Shown here: positions 16,386 to 24,539 of the stretch, piece by piece
Layout: the number at the start of each line of letters is the position of its first letter
How positions within the stretch are numbered: position 1 is the first letter of the stretch
Made by a program: the position numbers and the translations under genes
NCBI GenBank assembly: GCA_965223265.1
Contig: OZ244999.1
Location: 8,352,001-8,416,000 of the forward strand
Reading direction: 5' to 3'
Length of the DNA: 64,000 bases
Source of the DNA: Planctomycetota bacterium
GTDB taxonomy: Bacteria > Planctomycetota > UBA8108 > SXIK01
The notes under the pieces: generated by a model
The model's database searches: none
What the model was told of the DNA's origin: nothing
Seen by the model: only the letters and a program-made list of their open reading frames with translations

Positions 16386-17087
16386 TCACTCGTGCGGCTC
16401 GACCGCCAGAAACGGCAGCTGACCGTCCGGGCTTGAGACGAGCCGCGGAACGAGGTCGCAGACTTCGGTGCGCAAACAGTACTCAAGGTCCGCTGTAGGA
16501 TAGTTGGTGTTCGTCGGATCGAGAAACTTCTCCCCCTGCGGGTGGCTGCGAATCGTTTCCCAAGCCGCTTCGAGGTCGAAACGCCTGCCCTCGATGAGCG
16601 CTTCGACGTACGCAGCGGCGAGATCATCCTCGGGCGACGGTATCTCTCCGGCGGTGCCGAGCGCCAGGAGCGACACCTGAGCAGGTCGAGCCCCGTCGAT
16701 GTAGCTCTTGACGGCGTGCGCGTTGAGAAAGGAGCCGCAAATGACCTCTGACGCTTTCTCCCAGGCGGCGACGAAGCCGCGACTGCCCGCGGAGGTGGTG
16801 AGGACGACCGTGCGCCTGGTCAGATCGATGCTCGCCGTCTCCGTCGGTGAGTTCCCGAGATCGAAGCCTTCTGGTGGAATGCCGCCGCGCTCGCCCGCCA
16901 AGACGTAGTCAGGGTGCGCCGCTTTGACCTCTCGCGCTTTGGCCACGGTGGCGACAGGAATGACCCGATCGGCACCGCGGGAGAACATCGTGACGATGTG
17001 GGAAGAGGCACGAAAGACATCGAAGACGACGGCGAGTCCGGTCGCGCGGCGGGCGCCCTCGACGAGCTGAAGTTTCTTGATCTGCAC
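16386..17087 (-). CDS. comB: 2-phosphosulfolactate phosphatase (ComB family)
   Basis: VVFDVFRASS; LAGERGG; FDLGNSP; LTTSAGS; EDDLAA. Confidence 0.85.
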   Translation of the reverse strand: MQIKKLQLVEGARRATGLAVVFDVFRASSHIVTMFSRGADRVIPVATVAKAREVKAAHPDYVLAGERGGIPPEGFDLGNSPTETASIDLTRRTVVLTTSAGSRGFVAAWEKASEVICGSFLNAHAVKSYIDGARPAQVSLLALGTAGEIPSPEDDLAAAYVEALIEGRRFDLEAAWETIRSHPQGEKFLDPTNTNYPTADLEYCLRTEVCDLVPRLVSSPDGQLPFLAVEPHE

Positions 17088-17338
17088 TTGCGCTGGAAGG
17101 AGGGGAATCGTTCCGGAAAAAGTTGATCAGAACGAGGCGAATCGAGGTGTCGTCGATGCTGCTTCGGTGCACCTACTCGCGTCATGCGCCTCCGTCGCCC
17201 AATTCGAACTATACACTTTCAAGCTCGTAGTAGAAACTCATCAGCGCTCCGGGTTAGTGTGGCGCCTACCAGAGACGCGGTACTCGAGACGCTCGCGAAG
17301 CGCTGAGCGTAAAGACTTCGATTGCTGAGAGGTCCCCC

Positions 17339-18367
17339 ATGAACACGAATCACGAAGAGCAGAAACAAGAGCTCACGCGCCGCTCCTTCATCGGCACCGG
17401 AGGATCATTGGTCGGCGCAGCGGCGCTTGGCGTCTCGCTGAGCGGATGCGAGACCAGCGCTCAGCTCTCCGGCGCCTCGAAAGGGTCTACGGACCTCGGT
17501 GAGATACCGCGTCGGCTGCTCGGACGCACAGGAGCGAAGGTCAGTCTTCTTGGCCTCGGTACTGCGTGCACTGGTGAAGGGCCTCAAACCACGGCCGAGT
17601 GCGTCGAGGTCTACAGCGAAGCGATCGACCGCGGTATCAACTACATCGACACCGCGCGAATTTACGGCAATGCCGAGGAGGCGCTGAAGGGGGTGCTGAA
17701 GACGCGGCGTGACGACGTCTTTTTGGTCACGAAGTGTTTTACGGACACGGCAGCCGAAGCGCAGGAGTCGTTCGAGACCTCGCTGCGCACCATGGGCGTC
17801 GATCACGTCGACGTTCTGCATTTACACTCGGCGGGCGATCGTGACCTCGATCGTGTTTTGGCGCCTGGCGGCGCCTGGGAGTATCTCCTCAAGATGAAGG
17901 AGAGCGGGAAAGCACGCTTCCTTGGCATCACCGGGCATAGTCGTCCTGCGAATTTTGTCCGCATGCTCGACACCAAACAGGTCGACGTGATGATGGTGGC
18001 CATGAACTTCGTCGACCGACACGTCTATGGTTTCGAGGAAAAGGTCCTCCCCCGGGCGCGAGAACTCGGCACCGGTGTCATGGCCATGAAGGTGTTCGGC
18101 GGAATCTTGGGTGGATTCGCATTCAACCGCCAGCGTCGTCCGTCGCAGATGAATCCCGCATTTCTGCAGATCGCGGCGCGCTACTCGCTCAGCCTTGAGG
18201 GTGTCACCGGCGTCGTGATCGGGTGTCACGACACGTCGGAGCTGCGGCAGAACATTCGTTACGTGCTCAACGCTCCGCCACTCTCCGAGGCGGAGCTCGC
18301 GGCTCTGAAGTCGCACGGCGAACGGCTGGCGGCAGAGTGGGGCCCGCGTTTCGGGCCGGTTGTGTAG
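17339..18367 (+). CDS. Aldo/keto reductase with Tat-type signal
   Basis: TRRSFI twin-arginine motif followed by LSGC; GINYIDTARIYG; FLVTK; LHLH; GITGH. Confidence 0.9.
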   Translation: MNTNHEEQKQELTRRSFIGTGGSLVGAAALGVSLSGCETSAQLSGASKGSTDLGEIPRRLLGRTGAKVSLLGLGTACTGEGPQTTAECVEVYSEAIDRGINYIDTARIYGNAEEALKGVLKTRRDDVFLVTKCFTDTAAEAQESFETSLRTMGVDHVDVLHLHSAGDRDLDRVLAPGGAWEYLLKMKESGKARFLGITGHSRPANFVRMLDTKQVDVMMVAMNFVDRHVYGFEEKVLPRARELGTGVMAMKVFGGILGGFAFNRQRRPSQMNPAFLQIAARYSLSLEGVTGVVIGCHDTSELRQNIRYVLNAPPLSEAELAALKSHGERLAAEWGPRFGPVV

Positions 18368-18380
18368 TCGGCGTTAGGAT

Positions 18381-18617
18381 CAGAAGCAGAGACGGAAGCA
18401 GAGACGGAAGCAGAGACGGAAGCAGACGGAAGCAGAGACGGAAGCAGAGACAGAAGCAGAGACAGAAGCAGAGACAGAAGCAGAGACAGAGCAGAGACAG
18501 AAGCAGAGACGGAAGCAGAGACAGAAGCAGAGACAGAAGCAGAGACAGAAGCAGAGACAGAAGCAGAGACAGAAGCAGAGACAGAAGCAGAGACAGAAGC
18601 AGAGACAGAAGCAGAGA
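18381..18617. repeat. Tandem array of a 12-mer (CRGAAGCAGAGA), about 20 units
   Basis: Directly visible; two units carry small deletions; starts 13 bp after the AKR stop codon. Confidence 0.95.
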
Positions 18618-18642
18618 AGAGGTGTGCCGCCAAGGGGCGTTT

Positions 18643-18825
18643 GCGGCGGCGGTATTGTCGAGCGTAGCCGGAGTGCGGACGGGGTCAAGGGTGCCCTCGC
18701 TTCGCTCGGCGCTTCGCGCCTTCTGAGAGTGACCGCACCCCGTCCGCCCTGCGGCTCGGGGAGTGAAACGCCGCCGCGTCGGGCGTGCGGCGACAAGTCA
18801 CTGGGCCGTTGACCGGAGTCTTCTC
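18643..18825 (+). other. Conserved structured non-coding leader, copy 1 (cis-element or ncRNA candidate)
   Basis: Shares CGGCGGCGGTmTTGTCGAGCGTA and GTCAAGGGTGCCCTCGCTkCGCTCGGCGCTkCGCGCC with the reverse complement of 19949-20115; nested inverted repeats. Confidence 0.7.
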
Positions 18826-19149
18826 ATGGGCTTTCTCGCTTTGGATCACTCTGTTGGCATCGTTCGTCAGTTGCGTCCGCTTGTCTCGCGTGTGCGTCGT
18901 CACGACTCGAGGCTTGCCGCTCAGCTGCGCGACGCGGGGTCCTCCGTGGCGCTGAATTTGGGCGAGGGCAATCGGCGCTCTGGTCGTGACCGCGGGCATC
19001 TCTGGCGTGTTGCCTCAGGCAGTGCCGAAGAGGTGCGTACGGCGCTTCGTGTTGCTGAGGCTTGGGGCTACGTCGATGCGCAGGAGACAGCTTCGGTGCT
19101 TGGGGACATCGACGAGCTGCAGGCGATGCTTTGGAAGCTGACGCGCTGA
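18826..19149 (+). CDS. Four-helix-bundle protein (23S rRNA IVP / Avd-like family), 107 aa
   Basis: Family signature L..QLR.A..SV.LNL.EG..R......HL.R.A.GSA.E...L..A...GY; GGAG RBS before the ATG at 18826. Confidence 0.88.
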   Translation: MGFLALDHSVGIVRQLRPLVSRVRRHDSRLAAQLRDAGSSVALNLGEGNRRSGRDRGHLWRVASGSAEEVRTALRVAEAWGYVDAQETASVLGDIDELQAMLWKLTR

Positions 19150-19162
19150 GCTTGGGGTCTTG

Positions 19163-19194
19163 GGCCCGTCGTGCCTTTTTTGGCGCGGCGGGTT
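19163..19194 (+). terminator. Hairpin downstream of four-helix-bundle gene 1
   Basis: GGCCCGTCGTGCC-TTTTTT-GGCGCGGCGGGTT imperfect stem; weak U-tract. Confidence 0.45.
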
Positions 19195-19195
19195 T

Positions 19196-19575
19196 GAGGC
19201 GGGGGAGAGGCAGAGGGAGAGACGGGGACGGAACCGGAGGCAGAGACAGACCTCAACGTTGCAAAAGAGACGCGCCTTAAGACCGTGCGCGATTGCGATT
19301 GAGTGAAAGTTTGCGTGTGGGTGTGCGTGGGCGAGGGGGAACACGGCACACCGTCAACCTCACCAAACGTGAGGTCCGCCGCGACGTCCTTCAACTGCCG
19401 ATCGAACCTCAGGGAAAGGGTTTCTGAGCCCTTCCTGCGAAAACTTATGCAACTGTCGGGACAGAGTCAGAATCAGAGACGGATGACGGATAGAGATACA
19501 GAACCAGATGACAGAGTCAGCGACGGAGACAGAATCAGAGACGAGATGACAGAGTCGGAATCAGATCCAGAAGTC
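19196..19575. repeat. Degenerate GAnnCR hexamer array between the convergent four-helix-bundle genes, interrupted by the MITE
   Basis: GAGGCG GGGGAG AGGCAG...GAGACA on the left; GAGTCA GAATCA GAGACG...GATACA GAACCA...GATCCA on the right. Confidence 0.7.
19252..19459 (-). mobile_element. 208-bp MITE, copy 2 (inverted)
   Basis: Reverse complement of 2412-2619 with one visible near-terminal mismatch; GAC at 19249-19251 and 19460-19462. Confidence 0.85.
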
Positions 19576-19584
19576 GCCGTGAGC

Positions 19585-19612
19585 AGCGCCCGCTACGAAA
19601 GTAGCGGGCGCT
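19585..19612 (-). terminator. Perfect 12-bp hairpin downstream of four-helix-bundle gene 2
   Basis: AGCGCCCGCTAC-GAAA-GTAGCGGGCGCT; no U-tract. Confidence 0.5.
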
Positions 19613-19624
19613 TGGGCGTCTCGC

Positions 19625-19948
19625 TCAGCGCGTGAGGCCGCTGAGAAGAGCTAGGAGTCGATCGAGGGTCTGGAGAGGCACTGAGACGTCTTCGGTCTTG
19701 AGATCGCCCCAGGCCACAGAGAGCTGCAGGGCAGTCTCGACCTCCCGGGCACTGCCGCGGGCAGCGCGGTAGAGGTGCAGCGGATCTTTCCCAGCGCGCT
19801 CGGCCCCCTCCGAGAGATTGAGCGCGACGGAAGAGGCAGCCCGACGAATCTGCCGATGGAGATCGGGATCAAGCCTCCGAAGCCGCAGCAATGGAGCCCG
19901 CAAGTCGCGAATCAAACCAAGACTGACATCGAGAGCGATGAAGCGCAT
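19625..19948 (-). CDS. Four-helix-bundle protein (23S rRNA IVP / Avd-like family), 107 aa
   Basis: QIRRAASSVALNLSEG..R...ARGSARE; gap-free alignment to the 18826-19149 product; GGAGG RBS before the ATG at 19948. Confidence 0.88.
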   Translation of the reverse strand: MRFIALDVSLGLIRDLRAPLLRLRRLDPDLHRQIRRAASSVALNLSEGAERAGKDPLHLYRAARGSAREVETALQLSVAWGDLKTEDVSVPLQTLDRLLALLSGLTR

Positions 19949-20115
19949 GAAAGACCTCCGCAGAACGTAGAGTGAACAGCTCCGCCGCGTCCGGGCGGCG
20001 GTACTCCACCCCCCGACGCGGAGCGGAGTGGGTGTCAAGGGCGCGCAGCGCCGAGCGCAGCGAGGGCACCCTTGACAGTTCCGAGCACCGCGTACGCTCG
20101 ACAAGACCGCCGCCG
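19949..20115 (-). other. Conserved structured non-coding leader, copy 2
   Basis: Homologous to 18643-18825; contains the perfect stem TGTCAAGGG...CCCTTGACA. Confidence 0.7.
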
Positions 20116-20123
20116 TACGGTGA

Positions 20124-20231
20124 CCTCCCACTCCTCCCACTCCTCCCACTCCTCCCACTCCGCCTCCCACTCCGCCTCCCACGCAAACGCAAACGCAAAC
20201 GCAAACGCAAACGCAAACGCAAACGCAAACG
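20124..20231. repeat. Compound microsatellite (CCTCCCACT)4-(CCGCCTCCCACT)~2-(ACGCAA)8
   Basis: Directly visible upstream of leader copy 2. Confidence 0.95.
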
Positions 20232-20344
20232 AAGAGCCTGCCACCTTGGCGGCCGAATGGCGAAACTCCGACTAGCTCAGCGCCAGACCCAGGCTAGAAC
20301 ACCGTCCGGCAACGAACACGGGGTCCCATCGCGTGCGTCCGCTC

Positions 20345-21439
20345 TCACGGCGACGGTTTCCCCGCCTCTGACTTTTGAAACCGCTGCTTCATCCGACCCC
20401 AAAGACGCTGCAGCCAACGACCGCGGACGACCTTCTCGGTCGTTGTCTCCGCCGAGGCGTCAAACAGGTGACGCAGATCATCGACGAAGGCATCGTAGGA
20501 TTCCAGCACCGACTCGTAATAGCCCTTTTCGTGGATGCGCCTGAACGCCGTCGCGTAGTAGTCGATGAAATTGTCGTCGATCAGATCGAGCGCCACTTTG
20601 GCCGCACCGTGCGCGGTCTTGCCGGCGCGCACCATTTGTGTGAACGTCATCATGGCGACAGCGTTCGACACCTCGAAGAGGGAGCGCCCTTCGAGGCGAA
20701 CTGTGTCCTGGATCTCATTCCAGACGCGCTCGATGTCTTTTATGGGAACGAGACTCGCGAGGTCGGTCGTCTGCGATTGCTCGCGGAGCTGGGCGACCAT
20801 GGCCCGCAATTGATCCACTGTGACGGGTGGTGTGTCGAGACCATCTGCGAGGGTCCCCGAGGTCTTTTGTAACGCGTCGAGGAGACCATCGACGTTTTCG
20901 ATCGTATCGCTTTCGTCGATGACGCCTTGCTGACGCAGCTCGTCAACGAGCGCGTTGAGATAGGAGCGTGCGCCGAGGGCCACGTCGCTAAAGATGGCGA
21001 TCACCCAAAGCGGTGAAACGTGCATCACGGAGAGCCCGGCGATGTCGATGACGTTGCCGACGGCCTTCTTGACGACGAATTGATCATCTTCGCCGCTCGT
21101 GGTCTTCGCGTCTGCTTCGGGATTGTCTTTGTCACCCGAAGGTTTCAGACGTCCGACGTCATCGGCAAGAAAACCGAGCATCTTTTGCACCGTAATGTCG
21201 TAGAGGCGGCCACCCTTGAACGCGTCCGGCACAACGACCTTGGCTGCGTCGCGGACCGTGCGGCTGGTAGTGCCGATCATCGCGCGAGCCAACCGCTCCG
21301 GCACGCTCAAGCCTTAGACGGCAGCGTCGACGGCGGCCGACAACGCGTCTGTTGCCCCATCTTCGGGGCGGTTCGCCTCTGGGGACGCCTCATTCTCCAG
21401 TTCTCCGGAGCGTACGGAATCGCCGCTGCTCGCGTCCAT
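20345..21439 (-). pseudogene. Conserved hypothetical protein (LSxPER-type) with an in-frame TAA at 21314-21316
   Basis: The frame is open from ATG 21439 (AAGAGG RBS) as MDASSGD...AAVDAAV*GLSVPERLAR, then continues as the 321-aa ORF 20345-21310. Confidence 0.55.
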
Positions 21440-21767
21440 GTTTGCCTCTTGTGGCTGGGTGGGATCGTTTGCTGGCATGTGAGGTCACCTGCTGCGGTGG
21501 TCGCCGACCGGCGTACTGCTCGAATAGACGTTGTGTTCCGCGGGTCGTTTCAAATCGTTCCCTAAAATATCGGCCATCGGGGTTCGAATTTCGCAGGAGA
21601 TTCTTGTGGAGCCAAGACACGGAAGCCCGCACGCGTACACGATCGCCTACTCCCCACGCCCACGCAATCGCCCACGCCCACCCACACGCAAACCCAAGTG
21701 CGAGGCAGATACGGCGTCAGTCGCACCCAGAGTACGGACGAAGACGCCAACTCCTCGGCCCACGGAA

Positions 21768-21792
21768 GCCGAATGACTTTTTCAACGGGCTG
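21768..21792. mobile_element. Solo right end of the IS1182-like MITE family
   Basis: GCCGAATGACTTTTTCAACGGGCTG followed by CTAG; identical to the right end of 43400-43557; no left end found. Confidence 0.65.
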
Positions 21793-22026
21793 CTAGGTCA
21801 CAACCCCGATCGTCAGCAGCAGGTTGGCGTAGATGCGCTGCTCGGCCGTCGCCACGGTTAGGGCCACGTCTGGTGAGGCCGCGGCGTCATAGAATGTGAA
21901 GCGCCCGAGGCGTTCCAGCTTGACGTCGGCTCGCGCCTCGACGAGGAGCGATCGGAACTCATCCCAGATTGGCGGCTCCACACCATCCGCAGGATCCATG
22001 ACCGCGGCGCTCTCGACAGGAATCGC
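21793..22026 (-). pseudogene. RbsD/FucU family mutarotase/pyranase, 3' fragment
   Basis: AIPVESAAVM...PPIWDEF...LGRFTFYDAA...VATAEQRIYANLLLTIGV; joins in frame with 26092-26289 across the TSD. Confidence 0.88.
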
Positions 22027-22267: not shown

Positions 22268-22936
22268 ATGCTACCCCATTTGGTCAACGCGATACAGAGC
22301 TATGGCGAAGCTGTTCGCCGCCGTGAGATCCAGCCGACCTGTAACCGCTGCCCGAATTGCAGCGGGGAGCCAGATCGGTTCCGCTACCGCGGTCACCGAG
22401 AGCGCGTGTTCCTCGTTATCGTCAGGCGTCTGGTCGAACCTGTCCTGTCGCTTCTGAGTCGCTGGAAGTGTCCTCTGTGTAAGCGCTCCTTCACGCTCTA
22501 CCCGCCCTTCGCGCTGCCGGGGAAACGCTACGTTCGCGACTGCGTTTTCGATCACGCTCGGCGCTACCTCCAGATCGACGAGCTTTCGTATCGCGAAGCC
22601 GTCAAGGTCGAACACATGCCCGTCTTCCACGAGGGTGACGACAGGGGAGCGATCGACGAGCGCAGCCTCGCGCACTCAACACTTCATCGTTGGCTTTCGT
22701 TCTTTCGCTCTCTCAACGCCACGCTCCTGGAGGCTCTCCGCCTCATCCGAGAGCGCTCGGCGAGGTCCGACATCTTCCGCAAGGTCTTCGCCGTCCGTCC
22801 AGCCAAGTACCGAAGCGAATCACGGCGGGACACTCTCGTCGCGGCACTTCGAGCTCTCTCGATCGACCAGGTGTTCCGTTCCCTCTTCGGCCGATCGATC
22901 TTCCCCGACTTGGCAACCTCCGCAGCCTGGGCGTGA
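22268..22936 (+). CDS. Transposon-associated zinc-ribbon protein (DUF6431-like)
   Basis: CPNC...RWKCPLCKRSFTLYPPFALPGKRY...HSTLHRW. Confidence 0.7.
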   Translation: MLPHLVNAIQSYGEAVRRREIQPTCNRCPNCSGEPDRFRYRGHRERVFLVIVRRLVEPVLSLLSRWKCPLCKRSFTLYPPFALPGKRYVRDCVFDHARRYLQIDELSYREAVKVEHMPVFHEGDDRGAIDERSLAHSTLHRWLSFFRSLNATLLEALRLIRERSARSDIFRKVFAVRPAKYRSESRRDTLVAALRALSIDQVFRSLFGRSIFPDLATSAAWA

Positions 22937-22976
22937 GCGAGAATCACGCCTCGCTCGCCCCATGCGAGGTGTGATC

Positions 22977-24539
22977 ATGAAAGCGAAAGATCTCGATTGG
23001 GCTATCTTCTGGGCGGCTCTTCTCCAGCCCGTCGTCATCGGCGAGGTGCCGGAGGAGGAAGCCGCGCGATTTCTCCGCGAGCTCGCCAAAGAAGAGCGCA
23101 TCTTTCCCGACGGATCGCGACGCAAGCCGGCTCTTTCGACCCTGAGGCGGAAGCTTCGCATCTATCGCGAGGAGGGCTTCGAGGGTCTTGCCCGCAGGCC
23201 GCGAAGCGATCGCGGGAAACCGCGTGCCCACGGCAAAGAGCTCGTCGAGAAAGCCGTCGAGCTGAAGCGTGATCAGCCACTGCGCTCCCACTTCGCCATC
23301 AACAAGTTCCTCCAGGCTCAGCACGGAAAGACCATTCCGCGTTCGACCCTCTTCCGCTACCTCAAGATCGCCGGCGCGACGCGGCTGAAGCTCGGTGTCG
23401 AGAGGAGGAAAGTCCGGAAACGCTGGACTCGTGACTCCACCCATGCCCTCTGGGTCGGCGACTTCGCCGATGGACCCTACGTGCTGCACGACGGCGAAGT
23501 CGTCCCCACCTTCCTCTGTGTTCTCATCGACTGCTACAGCCGCTCGCTCGTCGAGGGGCGCTACTACCTTCGGCAAAATCTCGAGGTCTTGATCGACTGC
23601 TTGCTGCGGGCGTGGGCCAAGCACGGTGCTTCGGACGAGCTCTATGTCGATCAGGCGAAGGTCTATATCTCCAAAGCGCTCAAGGCGGCATGCCTTGCCG
23701 TTGTCACCCGGCTCATCCATCGCGGCAAGGGCGATCCGCCACCGGGTGGTCTCGTCGAACGACTCATCGAGACGATACAGGGCCAGTTCGAGGCCGAGGT
23801 CAGAGCCGGCGAGATCCTCACTCTCGACTCGCTCAACGGAAGCTTCGATTCCTGGAAGACCGTGGCCTACCACCGCCAGGTCAACACCGAGACCGGCGAA
23901 ACACCCGAGGCACGAGCCGAGGCCGGCCTCAAACGGCCTATCCGACACGTCGACATTCAGCGCGTCACCGAGTTCTTCATGTGCCGCGAGACGCGGCGCG
24001 TTCACCCGGACTTCTCCGACGTCCAGCTCGATCGCCGCTTCTATCGCGTCGACAAGAGTCTGCGCGGTGACAAGGTCGAAGTCCGCTACGATCCCTTCTC
24101 CGCGCCCGACACGGTTCTCATCTACTCCAGCAACGAAGAGTACCTCGGAAAGGGCGTCCTTCACGAGCGCGAAGAGGGCGAGGACGCCGGTGCTCCCGCC
24201 CCTCCCGCCAAAGCGAAGCACAACTATCTGGAGCTTCTTCGCCGTGAGCACGACGAGGAGCTCAAGAAGCGCGCCCAGGGGATCGACTACCGTCGTGTCA
24301 TCGCCTCTCGCCAGTGGCCCTTCACCGACTTCGCATGCCTTCTCGGCCGGCTCATGGGGCGCAAGGGCGCCCTCTCGAGCTTCACCGCCGAGGAGCTCGA
24401 GGAACTCAAGAAGTTCTACAACCGTACTCCCAGCCTCACCGAAGTCCTCTTGCTGAGGGCCTTCGAGAAGGCTCCGGAGAAATCCATTCCCTACATCGCC
24501 TACGAGCTTCAACGACTCGCAGGCAGAAAGGAGGACTGA
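22977..24539 (+). CDS. DDE-type integrase/transposase (HTH + rve core + Mu-transposase C-terminal-like domain)
   Basis: STLRRKLRIY...GLARRPRSDRG HTH; LWVGD, LYVDQ and GLVER DDE triad; VEVRYDPF; start at MKAKD after a GAGGTG RBS. Confidence 0.9.
   Translation: MKAKDLDWAIFWAALLQPVVIGEVPEEEAARFLRELAKEERIFPDGSRRKPALSTLRRKLRIYREEGFEGLARRPRSDRGKPRAHGKELVEKAVELKRDQPLRSHFAINKFLQAQHGKTIPRSTLFRYLKIAGATRLKLGVERRKVRKRWTRDSTHALWVGDFADGPYVLHDGEVVPTFLCVLIDCYSRSLVEGRYYLRQNLEVLIDCLLRAWAKHGASDELYVDQAKVYISKALKAACLAVVTRLIHRGKGDPPPGGLVERLIETIQGQFEAEVRAGEILTLDSLNGSFDSWKTVAYHRQVNTETGETPEARAEAGLKRPIRHVDIQRVTEFFMCRETRRVHPDFSDVQLDRRFYRVDKSLRGDKVEVRYDPFSAPDTVLIYSSNEEYLGKGVLHEREEGEDAGAPAPPAKAKHNYLELLRREHDEELKKRAQGIDYRRVIASRQWPFTDFACLLGRLMGRKGALSSFTAEELEELKKFYNRTPSLTEVLLLRAFEKAPEKSIPYIAYELQRLAGRKED

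Follow-up and report, generated by a model that had tools for sequence, protein, structure and literature searches.

A convergent pair of PF05635 cassettes with structured leaders and hexamer-based arrays in a planctomycete genome

In a 64,000-nucleotide stretch of a Planctomycetota bacterium (assembly GCA_965223265.1, contig OZ244999.1, positions 8,352,001 to 8,416,000; hereafter the window), positions 18381-20231 carry two small genes, A and B, which encode four-helix-bundle proteins of the family PF05635/TIGR02436. The interval is one copy of a composite of ~1.8 kb, made of an array, cassette A, a spacer, cassette B and a further array, which has been copied at least six times. Since the unit contains no enzyme gene, and no reverse transcriptase (RT), Y1 transposase or integron integrase has been found to co-occur with it, we read it, with a probability of about 0.65, as a non-autonomous, divergent branch of the PF05635 (S23p/Avd-fold) cassettes of the rRNA intervening-sequence (IVS) type, possibly spread via its tandem arrays. 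This branch replaces the inverted heptamer arms of the other cassettes by a tip-bearing leader hairpin of ~125 nt, a GC-rich 3' hairpin and hexamer-based arrays of the same polarity. New here are the direct polarity of the arrays, the co-occurrence of arrays and gene subfamily, the orientation relative to replication, a hairpin tip common to integron attC sites and orphan hairpins, and the lack of a co-occurring RT or HUH enzyme.

Copies, proteins and distribution of the cassette

The two open reading frames (ORFs) of 107 codons, running from ATG to TGA, face each other, and their products share 53 of 107 residues in a gap-free alignment (E 2e-24). Each gene is embedded in the same order of parts, namely a tandem array, a homologous leader, a ribosome-binding site (RBS), the ORF and a 3' hairpin (Table 1). 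The leaders at 18618-18825 (A) and 19949-20123 (B) can be aligned with each other, and a block of ~40 nt within them is almost identical and far less diverged than the coding sequences of A and B. Both ORFs finish with the common end ACGCGCTGAGC, and in each case a GC-rich hairpin follows 12-13 nt past the stop. An earlier reading made from the letters of the window (the sequence-only reading) had described the convergent gap-free paralogs and their common layout; the alignment has confirmed the former, and the latter has been found to hold in every particular. To its remark that the two upstream arrays have different units we add that the arrays flanking each single cassette show the same polarity and similar units.

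Against the PF05635 profile the proteins A and B reach 54.5 and 48.8 bits (curated cut-off 33.8), and against TIGR02436 56.5 and 49.2 bits (curated cut-off 24). The AlphaFold (AF2) model of A, with a predicted local distance difference test score (pLDDT) of 96.4, consists of helices at residues 2-26, 28-50, 53-80 and 85-106. Foldseek searches with this model have returned Xcc0516 (2GSC, template-modelling score (TM) 0.82-0.87) and BT_0352 (2RLD, TM 0.88-0.90), followed by Avd, a protein of diversity-generating retroelements (DGRs; 8UB7_E and 4DWL_D, TM 0.84-0.86), and 2GSC has also been matched by phmmer at E 9e-6. In the sections of PMC4990558 that concern these proteins, 2GSC is given as a homopentamer, and that paper is among the publications which, in the passages mentioning PF05635 or TIGR02436, term the family functionally uncharacterised; the relevant part of PMC10053308 treats PF05635 as Avd-like.

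The source assembly (G000) is a single contig of 9.18 Mb with 60.8% G+C, in which tblastn with A and B has found 41 gene matches. Intact 107-codon ORFs account for 36 of these (17 A, 19 B) and fragments for five, and the PF05635 profile has given 38 matches. Identity amounts to 80-100% within subfamily A or B and to ~50% between them. Convergent A/B pairs occur at seven loci; a coding-sequence tree unites the A genes from six of the pairs in a single tight clade, and does the same for their B genes. That block has therefore been copied as a unit, whereas the seventh pair (8.82 Mb) joins older branches. Near-identical blocks are found at unrelated loci, the homology between pair loci starts exactly at the start of the upstream array (which in the window comes 13 nt past the stop of the gene next to it), and the distal array units vary from locus to locus. 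The multi-copy character of the cassette and its lack of a recombinase or RT of its own, both put forward in the sequence-only reading, are thereby borne out, as no enzyme gene lies inside the unit. Decay affects ~8 copies, represented by the five partial genes together with orphan or fused hairpins, of which at least one is a leader hairpin joined to the final 30 nt of an A gene.

One might ask whether such repeats reflect an assembly artefact, since simple-repeat arrays are hard to assemble and draft genomes with the cassette are broken at them, many of the matches in G007 and G017 lying at contig ends. We regard this as next to negligible, given a genome in a single 9.18-Mb contig, 36 copies in which the same order of parts is combined with differing arrays and flanks, and the recurrence of the same design in independent assemblies.

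Pairwise dN/dS has a value of 0.144 for the A genes (134 pairs with a median dS of 0.55) and of 0.135 for the B genes (170 pairs with a median dS of 0.62), and the paralogs are thus under purifying selection in many diverged copies. The distribution among relatives is patchy, in line with the mobile cassette of the sequence-only reading: three genomes of the same family hold neither a PF05635 gene nor a match to R1, the covariance model of the leader described below, whereas G007, which belongs to another family of the same order, holds 13 genes and 13 hairpins, each ~125 nt upstream of its gene. In G041, found via a contig of a metagenome-assembled genome (MAG), four hairpins stand before four of the five genes, whose products are 32-37% identical to A. 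A single hairpin, again before a gene, occurs in G021, the sole match among 150 other genomes of the phylum. A Pfam profile search for PF05635 as a whole has been positive in 165 of 301 planctomycete genomes, where the gene is often present in numerous copies.

These data bear directly on a second explanation, according to which the genes form a host multigene family, for instance of small nucleic-acid-binding regulators or defence accessories, that has been duplicated and gene-converted but is not mobile, with the hairpin as a cis-regulatory and possibly autoregulated site and the arrays as hypervariable spacers or promoter regions. Such a family would agree with the intactness of all 36 full-length copies at a dN/dS of ~0.14 and a dS of ~0.6, with the fixed distance of the RBS, with the frequent multi-copy occurrence of PF05635 in the phylum and with the lack of a co-occurring mobility enzyme. 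We nevertheless consider it rather unlikely, because three same-family genomes lack the gene, the hairpin branch appears in only one of 150 other genomes of the phylum and yet also in an unrelated MAG, ~8 copies have decayed, and near-identical blocks stand at unrelated loci.

The leader hairpin and its tip

The alignment of the leader comprises 30 uninterrupted copies and excludes five that a recombinase element splits and one that is truncated; RNAalifold has folded it into a long hairpin of 37 pairs and ~125 nt. Standard pairs fill 97.6% of the cells of this structure, compared with 34-63% after a shift of the partners by 1-3 columns, and the covariation score of 0.274 (0.131 after shuffling) has been reached in none of 500 shuffles. 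Within the middle helix both sides have changed in 10 of 13 pairs; this covariation stems partly from the single split between A and B, and several different compensated variants also occur within A alone. Among 1034 cells 119 are G.U and 8 are A.C, and the model R1 scores ~130 bits on the forward strand versus 32-35 bits on the reverse strand; the leader fold belongs to the sense strand. In G000 the model has 41 sites, which precede 35 of the 36 intact genes and otherwise stand before gene fragments or alone. Together with the matches in three other genomes, the covariation establishes the leader as a conserved structure tied to the gene, as the sequence-only reading had supposed. The 3' hairpin folds in all 36 copies (RNAfold), its arms differing between A and B and yet remaining complementary, and that of the A copy in the window also makes use of G.U pairs.

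While the stems covary, the tip of the leader hairpin is invariant. Judging by its counterparts in other genomes, it is probably described more aptly as three parts: a stem AAGGG/CCCTT that closes it, a block of 17 unpaired nt, TGCCCTCGCTKCGCTCG, and a small hairpin whose pairs covary, with the variants GCGC/GCGC, GCGGC/GCCGC and GCGAC/TCGC. A 9-nt complementarity of the tip to the 'GEGN' codons of gene A is missing in B and has been dropped as a chance match.

The 21-nt tip motif has been found at 49 loci in a species-level genome collection. Full-length or end-cut R1 hairpins account for 21 of them, 15 in two cassette-bearing MAGs and six as orphans, which come from Acidobacteriota (Vicinamibacterales, Thermoanaerobaculia), a betaproteobacterial MAG and a Hydrogenedentota MAG and have neither an array nor a PF05635 gene within 800 nt. 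The orphan loci, with hairpins of ~115 nt, are L058, L069, L084, L090, L095 and L094; at L058 and L069, from two MAGs, the hairpin lies just past the stop of homologous genes without a Pfam family above threshold.

Seven more tip loci resemble integron attC sites in their ends (..AAC / GTT..) and their bulged bases. In a Desulfolunaceae genome such sites are found at distances of ~1.6 and 5.5 kb from genes for integron integrases with above-cut-off scores; a second attC of the array there carries a compensated mini-hairpin, and the nearby cassette ORFs are mutually unrelated. The attC-type loci are L061, L067, L076, L093, L105, L098 and L079, as well as L136 and L137, and comprise attC sites of Desulfolunaceae and attC-like elements of an Acidobacteriota MAG and a gammaproteobacterial MAG; in their tips the conserved block has the small hairpin on its 5' and not on its 3' side. 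A further ~18 of the 49 loci are GC-rich and apparently coding (Streptomyces, Labedella, Achromobacter and several Myxococcota), match the R1 model over only 26-31 nt or not at all, and have been set aside as chance or unrelated; the remaining tip loci are probably chance or coding matches.

The B leader is also the site of a separate element of 2,678 bp that encodes, on the strand opposite to the cassette gene, a large serine recombinase of 702 aa (domains Resolvase, Recombinase and Zn_ribbon_recom). Six B leaders carry it at the same point, with 99.9% identity between the elements, and the B leader of the window represents the unoccupied counterpart of this site at ~20076-20082 (-), as located by split leader matches. 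The sequences of the junctions suggest a TG crossover adjoining the invariant hairpin tip.

Tandem arrays, mobility and relation to intervening sequences

Tandem Repeats Finder (TRF) has detected 782 arrays in G000, which make up 0.6% of the genome and group into 589 zones. An array lies within 600 bp of 37 of the 41 genes, compared with 10.8% of 20,000 random positions; 32 genes have one at most 450 nt upstream and 22 at most 350 nt downstream. The two flanks of the cassettes share 626 7-mers in direct and 138 in inverted orientation, and the direct ones are ahead in 34 of 36 copies, whereas unmatched flanks have given means of 7.9 direct and 8.0 inverted 7-mers. Owing to this direct sharing, each cassette looks as if it were situated within one array. 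The units in this branch measure 6, 12 or 18 nt and not 7 or 8 nt. The CAGAAGCAGAGA-type array found upstream of A in the window precedes six A copies of the pair clade.

Beyond G000, 6-7-nt arrays have been observed directly upstream of the hairpin at all 10 of 10 foreign hairpin-gene loci (6 of the 13 in G007 and all 4 in G041), with units unrelated to each other. Among 21 genomes searched for the array patterns, five-unit ACGCMM arrays are represented by 837 overlapping pattern matches in G000 and a single match in G007, with none in the 19 remaining relatives, and GAGRCR arrays amount to 523 in G000, 138 in G017, 17 in G007, 6 in G014 and 6 in G016, with none in the other 16 genomes. PF05635 matches like A or B are present in G000, G007, G014 and G017 and missing in G016. 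Arrays of the two types are thus essentially confined to genomes with the A/B gene subfamily, which among non-independent kin is a pattern and not a test. The strong association of the arrays with the cassette, which the sequence-only reading had proposed, is borne out by the gene counts of G000, the foreign loci and the pattern among relatives.

Two further kinds of repeat are seen in the array zones. Short hairpins resembling repetitive extragenic palindromic (REP) elements, GGCACAC-NNN-GTGTGCC with a AAAGTAGCA head, alternate with hexamer arrays in many places, for example upstream of the B copies at 4.59, 5.65, 5.66 and 6.17 Mb, and a separate palindromic repeat of ~170 nt with GTTGAAAAAGT ends is present in ~25 array zones.

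The wider family has been sampled through the best-scoring PF05635 locus from each of 30 planctomycete genomes. Arrays of period 7, 8, 14 or 21 flank the ORF at 22 of the 30 canonical loci, and at 21 the flanks have at least five common inverted 7-mers (control mean 1.5), which places the ORF in the loop of a long stem. With these free-standing heptamer-armed cassettes our unit has in common the gene family, the small size, the two-sided arrays, the multi-copy state and the patchy occurrence; it differs in the polarity of its arms, reverse-complementary in 21 of 30 there and direct in 34 of 36 here, and in the R1 hairpin, which is restricted to this branch (one of 150 other phylum genomes). 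Given the prevalence of direct over inverted sharing, our unit does not show the IVS-type stem that closes over the ORF from inverted arms. The canonical cassette at locus L115, with inverted arms, lies apparently within the frame of a DNA methyltransferase, and is flanked in that frame by YYTPPELV-type and DPACGSGHFL-type motifs, recognised by eye.

A comparison with the S23p IVS of 23S rRNA (Coxiella burnetii helix 45; Leptospira) leads to a similar picture. The sections of PMC4990558 on the Coxiella IVS describe a terminal stem of 28 bp, which RNase III cuts, and GACAGAT heptamers in tandem (x3) before the S23p ORF, in a number that varies with the strain. They report a sporadic distribution as well as decay in Coxiella, and the authors term the element selfish. 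PF05635, a small ORF, a strong framing structure, short purine-rich tandem repeats before the ORF and sporadic occurrence are common to both. In contrast to the S23p IVS, our unit stands outside an rRNA gene, has separate 5' and 3' hairpins rather than one stem over the ORF, carries direct arrays of 6 or 12 nt, and holds ORFs that are intact and selected where those of Coxiella decay. An insertion in 23S rRNA is ruled out, as the flanks are protein genes and an Rfam covariance search of 17000-22000 on both strands (E<=1) has given no match, rRNA included. The sequence-only reading had called the cassette undescribed; indeed we have found, in the literature searched, no publication that describes either the direct-array R1 form or the heptamer-armed form of PF05635 cassettes, but the unit is a divergent branch of the PF05635/IVS cassettes and not a wholly new kind.

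The same reading had raised the prospect of an RT or HUH enzyme acting in trans, and here the data do not follow it. RT genes occur in G000 only, where four identical genes at 1.90, 3.42, 3.52 and 5.91 Mb all lie far from any cassette, and an RT search has found none in G007 or G041. The Y1 (HUH) transposase PF01797 is missing at E<=1e-5 from G000, G007, G041, G001 and G002, and the best score for the integron integrase (IntI) TIGR02249 in G000, G007 and G041 is 96 bits against a cut-off of 265. Three known systems have been excluded as the identity of the unit. Avd of the DGRs (4DWL, 8UB7) shares the four-helix-bundle fold, but our unit has no adjacent RT and no template/variable repeat pair, and in two of its host genomes no RT has been found at all. 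REP elements with their REP-associated tyrosine transposases (RAYT) and IS200/IS605 elements are dispersed hairpin units whose orientation follows replication, and in this they resemble our unit, which differs from them in that no Y1 transposase has been found at E<=1e-5 and in carrying a conserved protein gene. Integron cassettes with attC share with it a small promoter-less ORF unit, a long imperfect hairpin and the identical 21-nt tip, whereas the hairpin of our unit lies 5' of the ORF, lacks R''/R' boxes and an integrase, and belongs to scattered units; the AAC/GTT of the leader lies where the middle helix ends on its outer side, the sequence beyond being unpaired, and an attC identity is therefore rejected on geometry and for want of IntI.

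A retro-mobile cassette, in which an Avd-like protein recruits an RT encoded elsewhere and the arrays derive from template slippage, appears very improbable. The fold match to Avd (TM 0.84-0.86) and the four identical RT genes of G000 would suit it, and it is contradicted by the cassette-bearing G007 and G041, in which no RT has been found, by the distance of the G000 RTs from every cassette and by the lack of a template/variable repeat pair.

For the favoured non-autonomous branch of IVS-type cassettes, a mechanism can be outlined largely by analogy. The sense strand, and most likely the leader of the mRNA, would be where the hairpin acts, as a site of processing and/or protein binding, the processing being modelled on the RNase III cutting of the IVS stem; the sense-strand fold of the hairpin and its fixed distance to the RBS, together with this RNase III precedent, make a role in RNA the most likely. 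The 3' hairpin may end or stabilise the transcript. The protein would presumably form a ring, bind nucleic acid and act on its own cassette, either at the tip or at the repeats. Copying may take place in DNA: the cassette would recombine into the arrays, or along with them, using them as homology that travels with it, and only host or trans-acting functions would be needed. The direct polarity of the flanks and the block homology that starts in the arrays suggest spread by recombination at array homology, so that the arrays would be the target; that genomes with the cassettes are also those with the arrays suggests, by contrast, that one process makes both, the arrays being its by-product. Both readings fit the data.

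A number of observations weigh against this reading. At the ends of the seven pair blocks, which lie in possibly masking arrays, neither terminal inverted repeats nor a target-site duplication have been seen. An empty site has not been found among the genomes compared: the orthologues of the flanking genes are 30 kb apart in G001, the second gene has not been found in G003, and the nearest genomes, with 70% and 61% amino-acid identity for the flanking genes, show no synteny at this locus; consequently, the movement of the cassette is deduced and not seen. The array zones far outnumber the cassettes, as only 32 of the 589 hold one, and the 36 intact ORFs under purifying selection fit a useful host gene family as well. 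Since G.T pairing is equally strand-specific in single-stranded DNA, the leader fold is not diagnostic of RNA either. Furthermore, with the origin at ~7.95 Mb and the terminus at ~3.52 Mb placed by cumulative GC skew alone, 17 of 18 A genes run co-directionally with replication and 19 of 23 B genes head-on, counting all gene matches; for solitary genes the figures are 10 of 11 for A (p 0.012) and 12 of 16 for B (p 0.077). A scarcity of T on the fork-direction strand prevails by 54 to 11 among the arrays close to cassettes, and by 256 to 194 among arrays elsewhere. The replication bias and the tip shared with attC point towards a DNA role and keep one in single-stranded DNA alive. A and B, however, face in opposite directions relative to the fork, so that a simple model in which the hairpin forms on the template of the lagging strand would suit just one of the two.

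Such a DNA role underlies another explanation, in which the hairpin is a folded single-stranded DNA site in the manner of attC, REP or the ends of IS200/IS605, moved in connection with the fork by an enzyme acting in trans, and the arrays result from slippage or repair where the hairpin stalls the fork. The orientation tied to the replichores and the T-poor arrays speak for it, and so do the tip in Desulfolunaceae attC sites with their covarying mini-hairpin beside integrase genes, the orphan hairpins that are not followed by the PF05635 gene, and the serine-recombinase element that targets the B leader. It is nonetheless judged improbable in view of the missing above-cut-off integrase and Y1 transposase, the lack of the attC R-box AAC/GTT geometry, the opposite fork orientations of A and B at identical sense-strand folds, and the fixed place of the hairpin before the RBS.

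More speculatively, and in our view unlikely, the tip could be a portable recognition module carried by unrelated hairpins and read by the ring protein or a shared host factor on single strands at the fork, which would account for recombinase-free copying, for an orientation set by replication and for the arrays as a trace. The kinds of hairpin that bear the tip are the leaders of four-helix-bundle cassettes, integron attC sites and the orphan hairpins of Acidobacteriota and other phyla. If true, this would provide a first function for PF05635 and link rRNA IVS, integron sites and genome-wide microsatellite arrays.

Features of the locus and meaning for the family

The coordinates of the features are compiled in Table 1. 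The pair is flanked by an aldo/keto reductase gene (PF00248) and by a gene for a 321-aa protein, for which no Pfam family has been found. A consensus scan for promoters and terminators over 18200-20400 has given one promoter-like site, in the spacer arrays, and one terminator-like site, numbers that do not exceed those from shuffled sequences. Among the sequencing runs that contain words sampled from the locus none is listed as RNA, and four runs of unspecified kind contain 64-76% of these words.

Table 1. Parts of the A/B pair (positions in the window) and copies of the serine-recombinase element (positions in G000).
Feature	Position	Strand	Description and basis
Upstream tandem array of cassette A	18381..18617	+	TRF, period 12, unit CAGAAGCAGAGA, 20 copies
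Leader hairpin of cassette A, with invariant tip	18644..18779	+	covariance model R1, 97.5 bits
RBS of A	18815..18818	+	GGAG, 7 nt before ATG; sequence reading, alignment column conserved
Gene A	18826..19149	+	107 aa, four-helix-bundle, PF05635/TIGR02436
3' hairpin of A	19157..19199	+	GC-rich stem, T6 loop, then TTTG; RNAfold
Dispersed repeat between cassettes, like a miniature inverted-repeat transposable element (MITE)	19249..19460	.	inverted blastn matches
Degenerate purine-rich arrays between cassettes	19460..19559	+	TRF
3' hairpin of B	19573..19604	-	GCGCCCGCTAC / GTAGCGGGCGC; sequence reading, RNAfold
Gene B	19625..19948	-	107 aa, ~50% identical paralog of A, PF05635/TIGR02436
RBS of B	19955..19959	-	GGAGG; sequence reading, alignment of leaders
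Leader hairpin of cassette B	19993..20115	-	covariance model R1, 117.5 bits
Upstream arrays of cassette B	20124..20231	-	TRF; CCTCCCACT-type (20124-20182, period 9/12), then ACGCAA x8.5 (20181-20231), + strand reading
Serine-recombinase elements, G000	7186463-7189140, 6779124-6781801, 8597852-8600529, 8835399-8838076, 2581248-2583921, 8979587-8982260		

The repeat of ~210 nt at 19249-19460 has imperfect terminal inverted repeats and two internal hairpins; its relatives, which number in the tens, adjoin arrays elsewhere in the genome, and it is oriented oppositely in four otherwise homologous pair loci. Outside the B-side array, ~45 nt at 20232-20275 are homologous to the same place beside the pair at 8.30 Mb, reflecting either a longer copied block at these two loci or another small repeat. 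The next intergenic gap holds another short CCCACG/CACGCAAACCCA array (21653-21696), and at 22268-24539 a DUF6431-like ORF (21.1 bits, below the cut-off) overlaps the start of a 634-aa ORF.

Structures have been solved for PF05635/TIGR02436, a very large family to which no function is assigned. For this family the genome G000 represents a natural experiment, as it combines 36 selected paralogs in two often-paired subfamilies, covarying stems with a fixed tip, arrays that track the gene across relatives and an orientation rule with respect to replication. The same tip in the attC sites of another phylum unexpectedly connects two kinds of genetic unit that are built on hairpins. Taken together, these features lead to concrete tests of binding and processing for a family of no known function.

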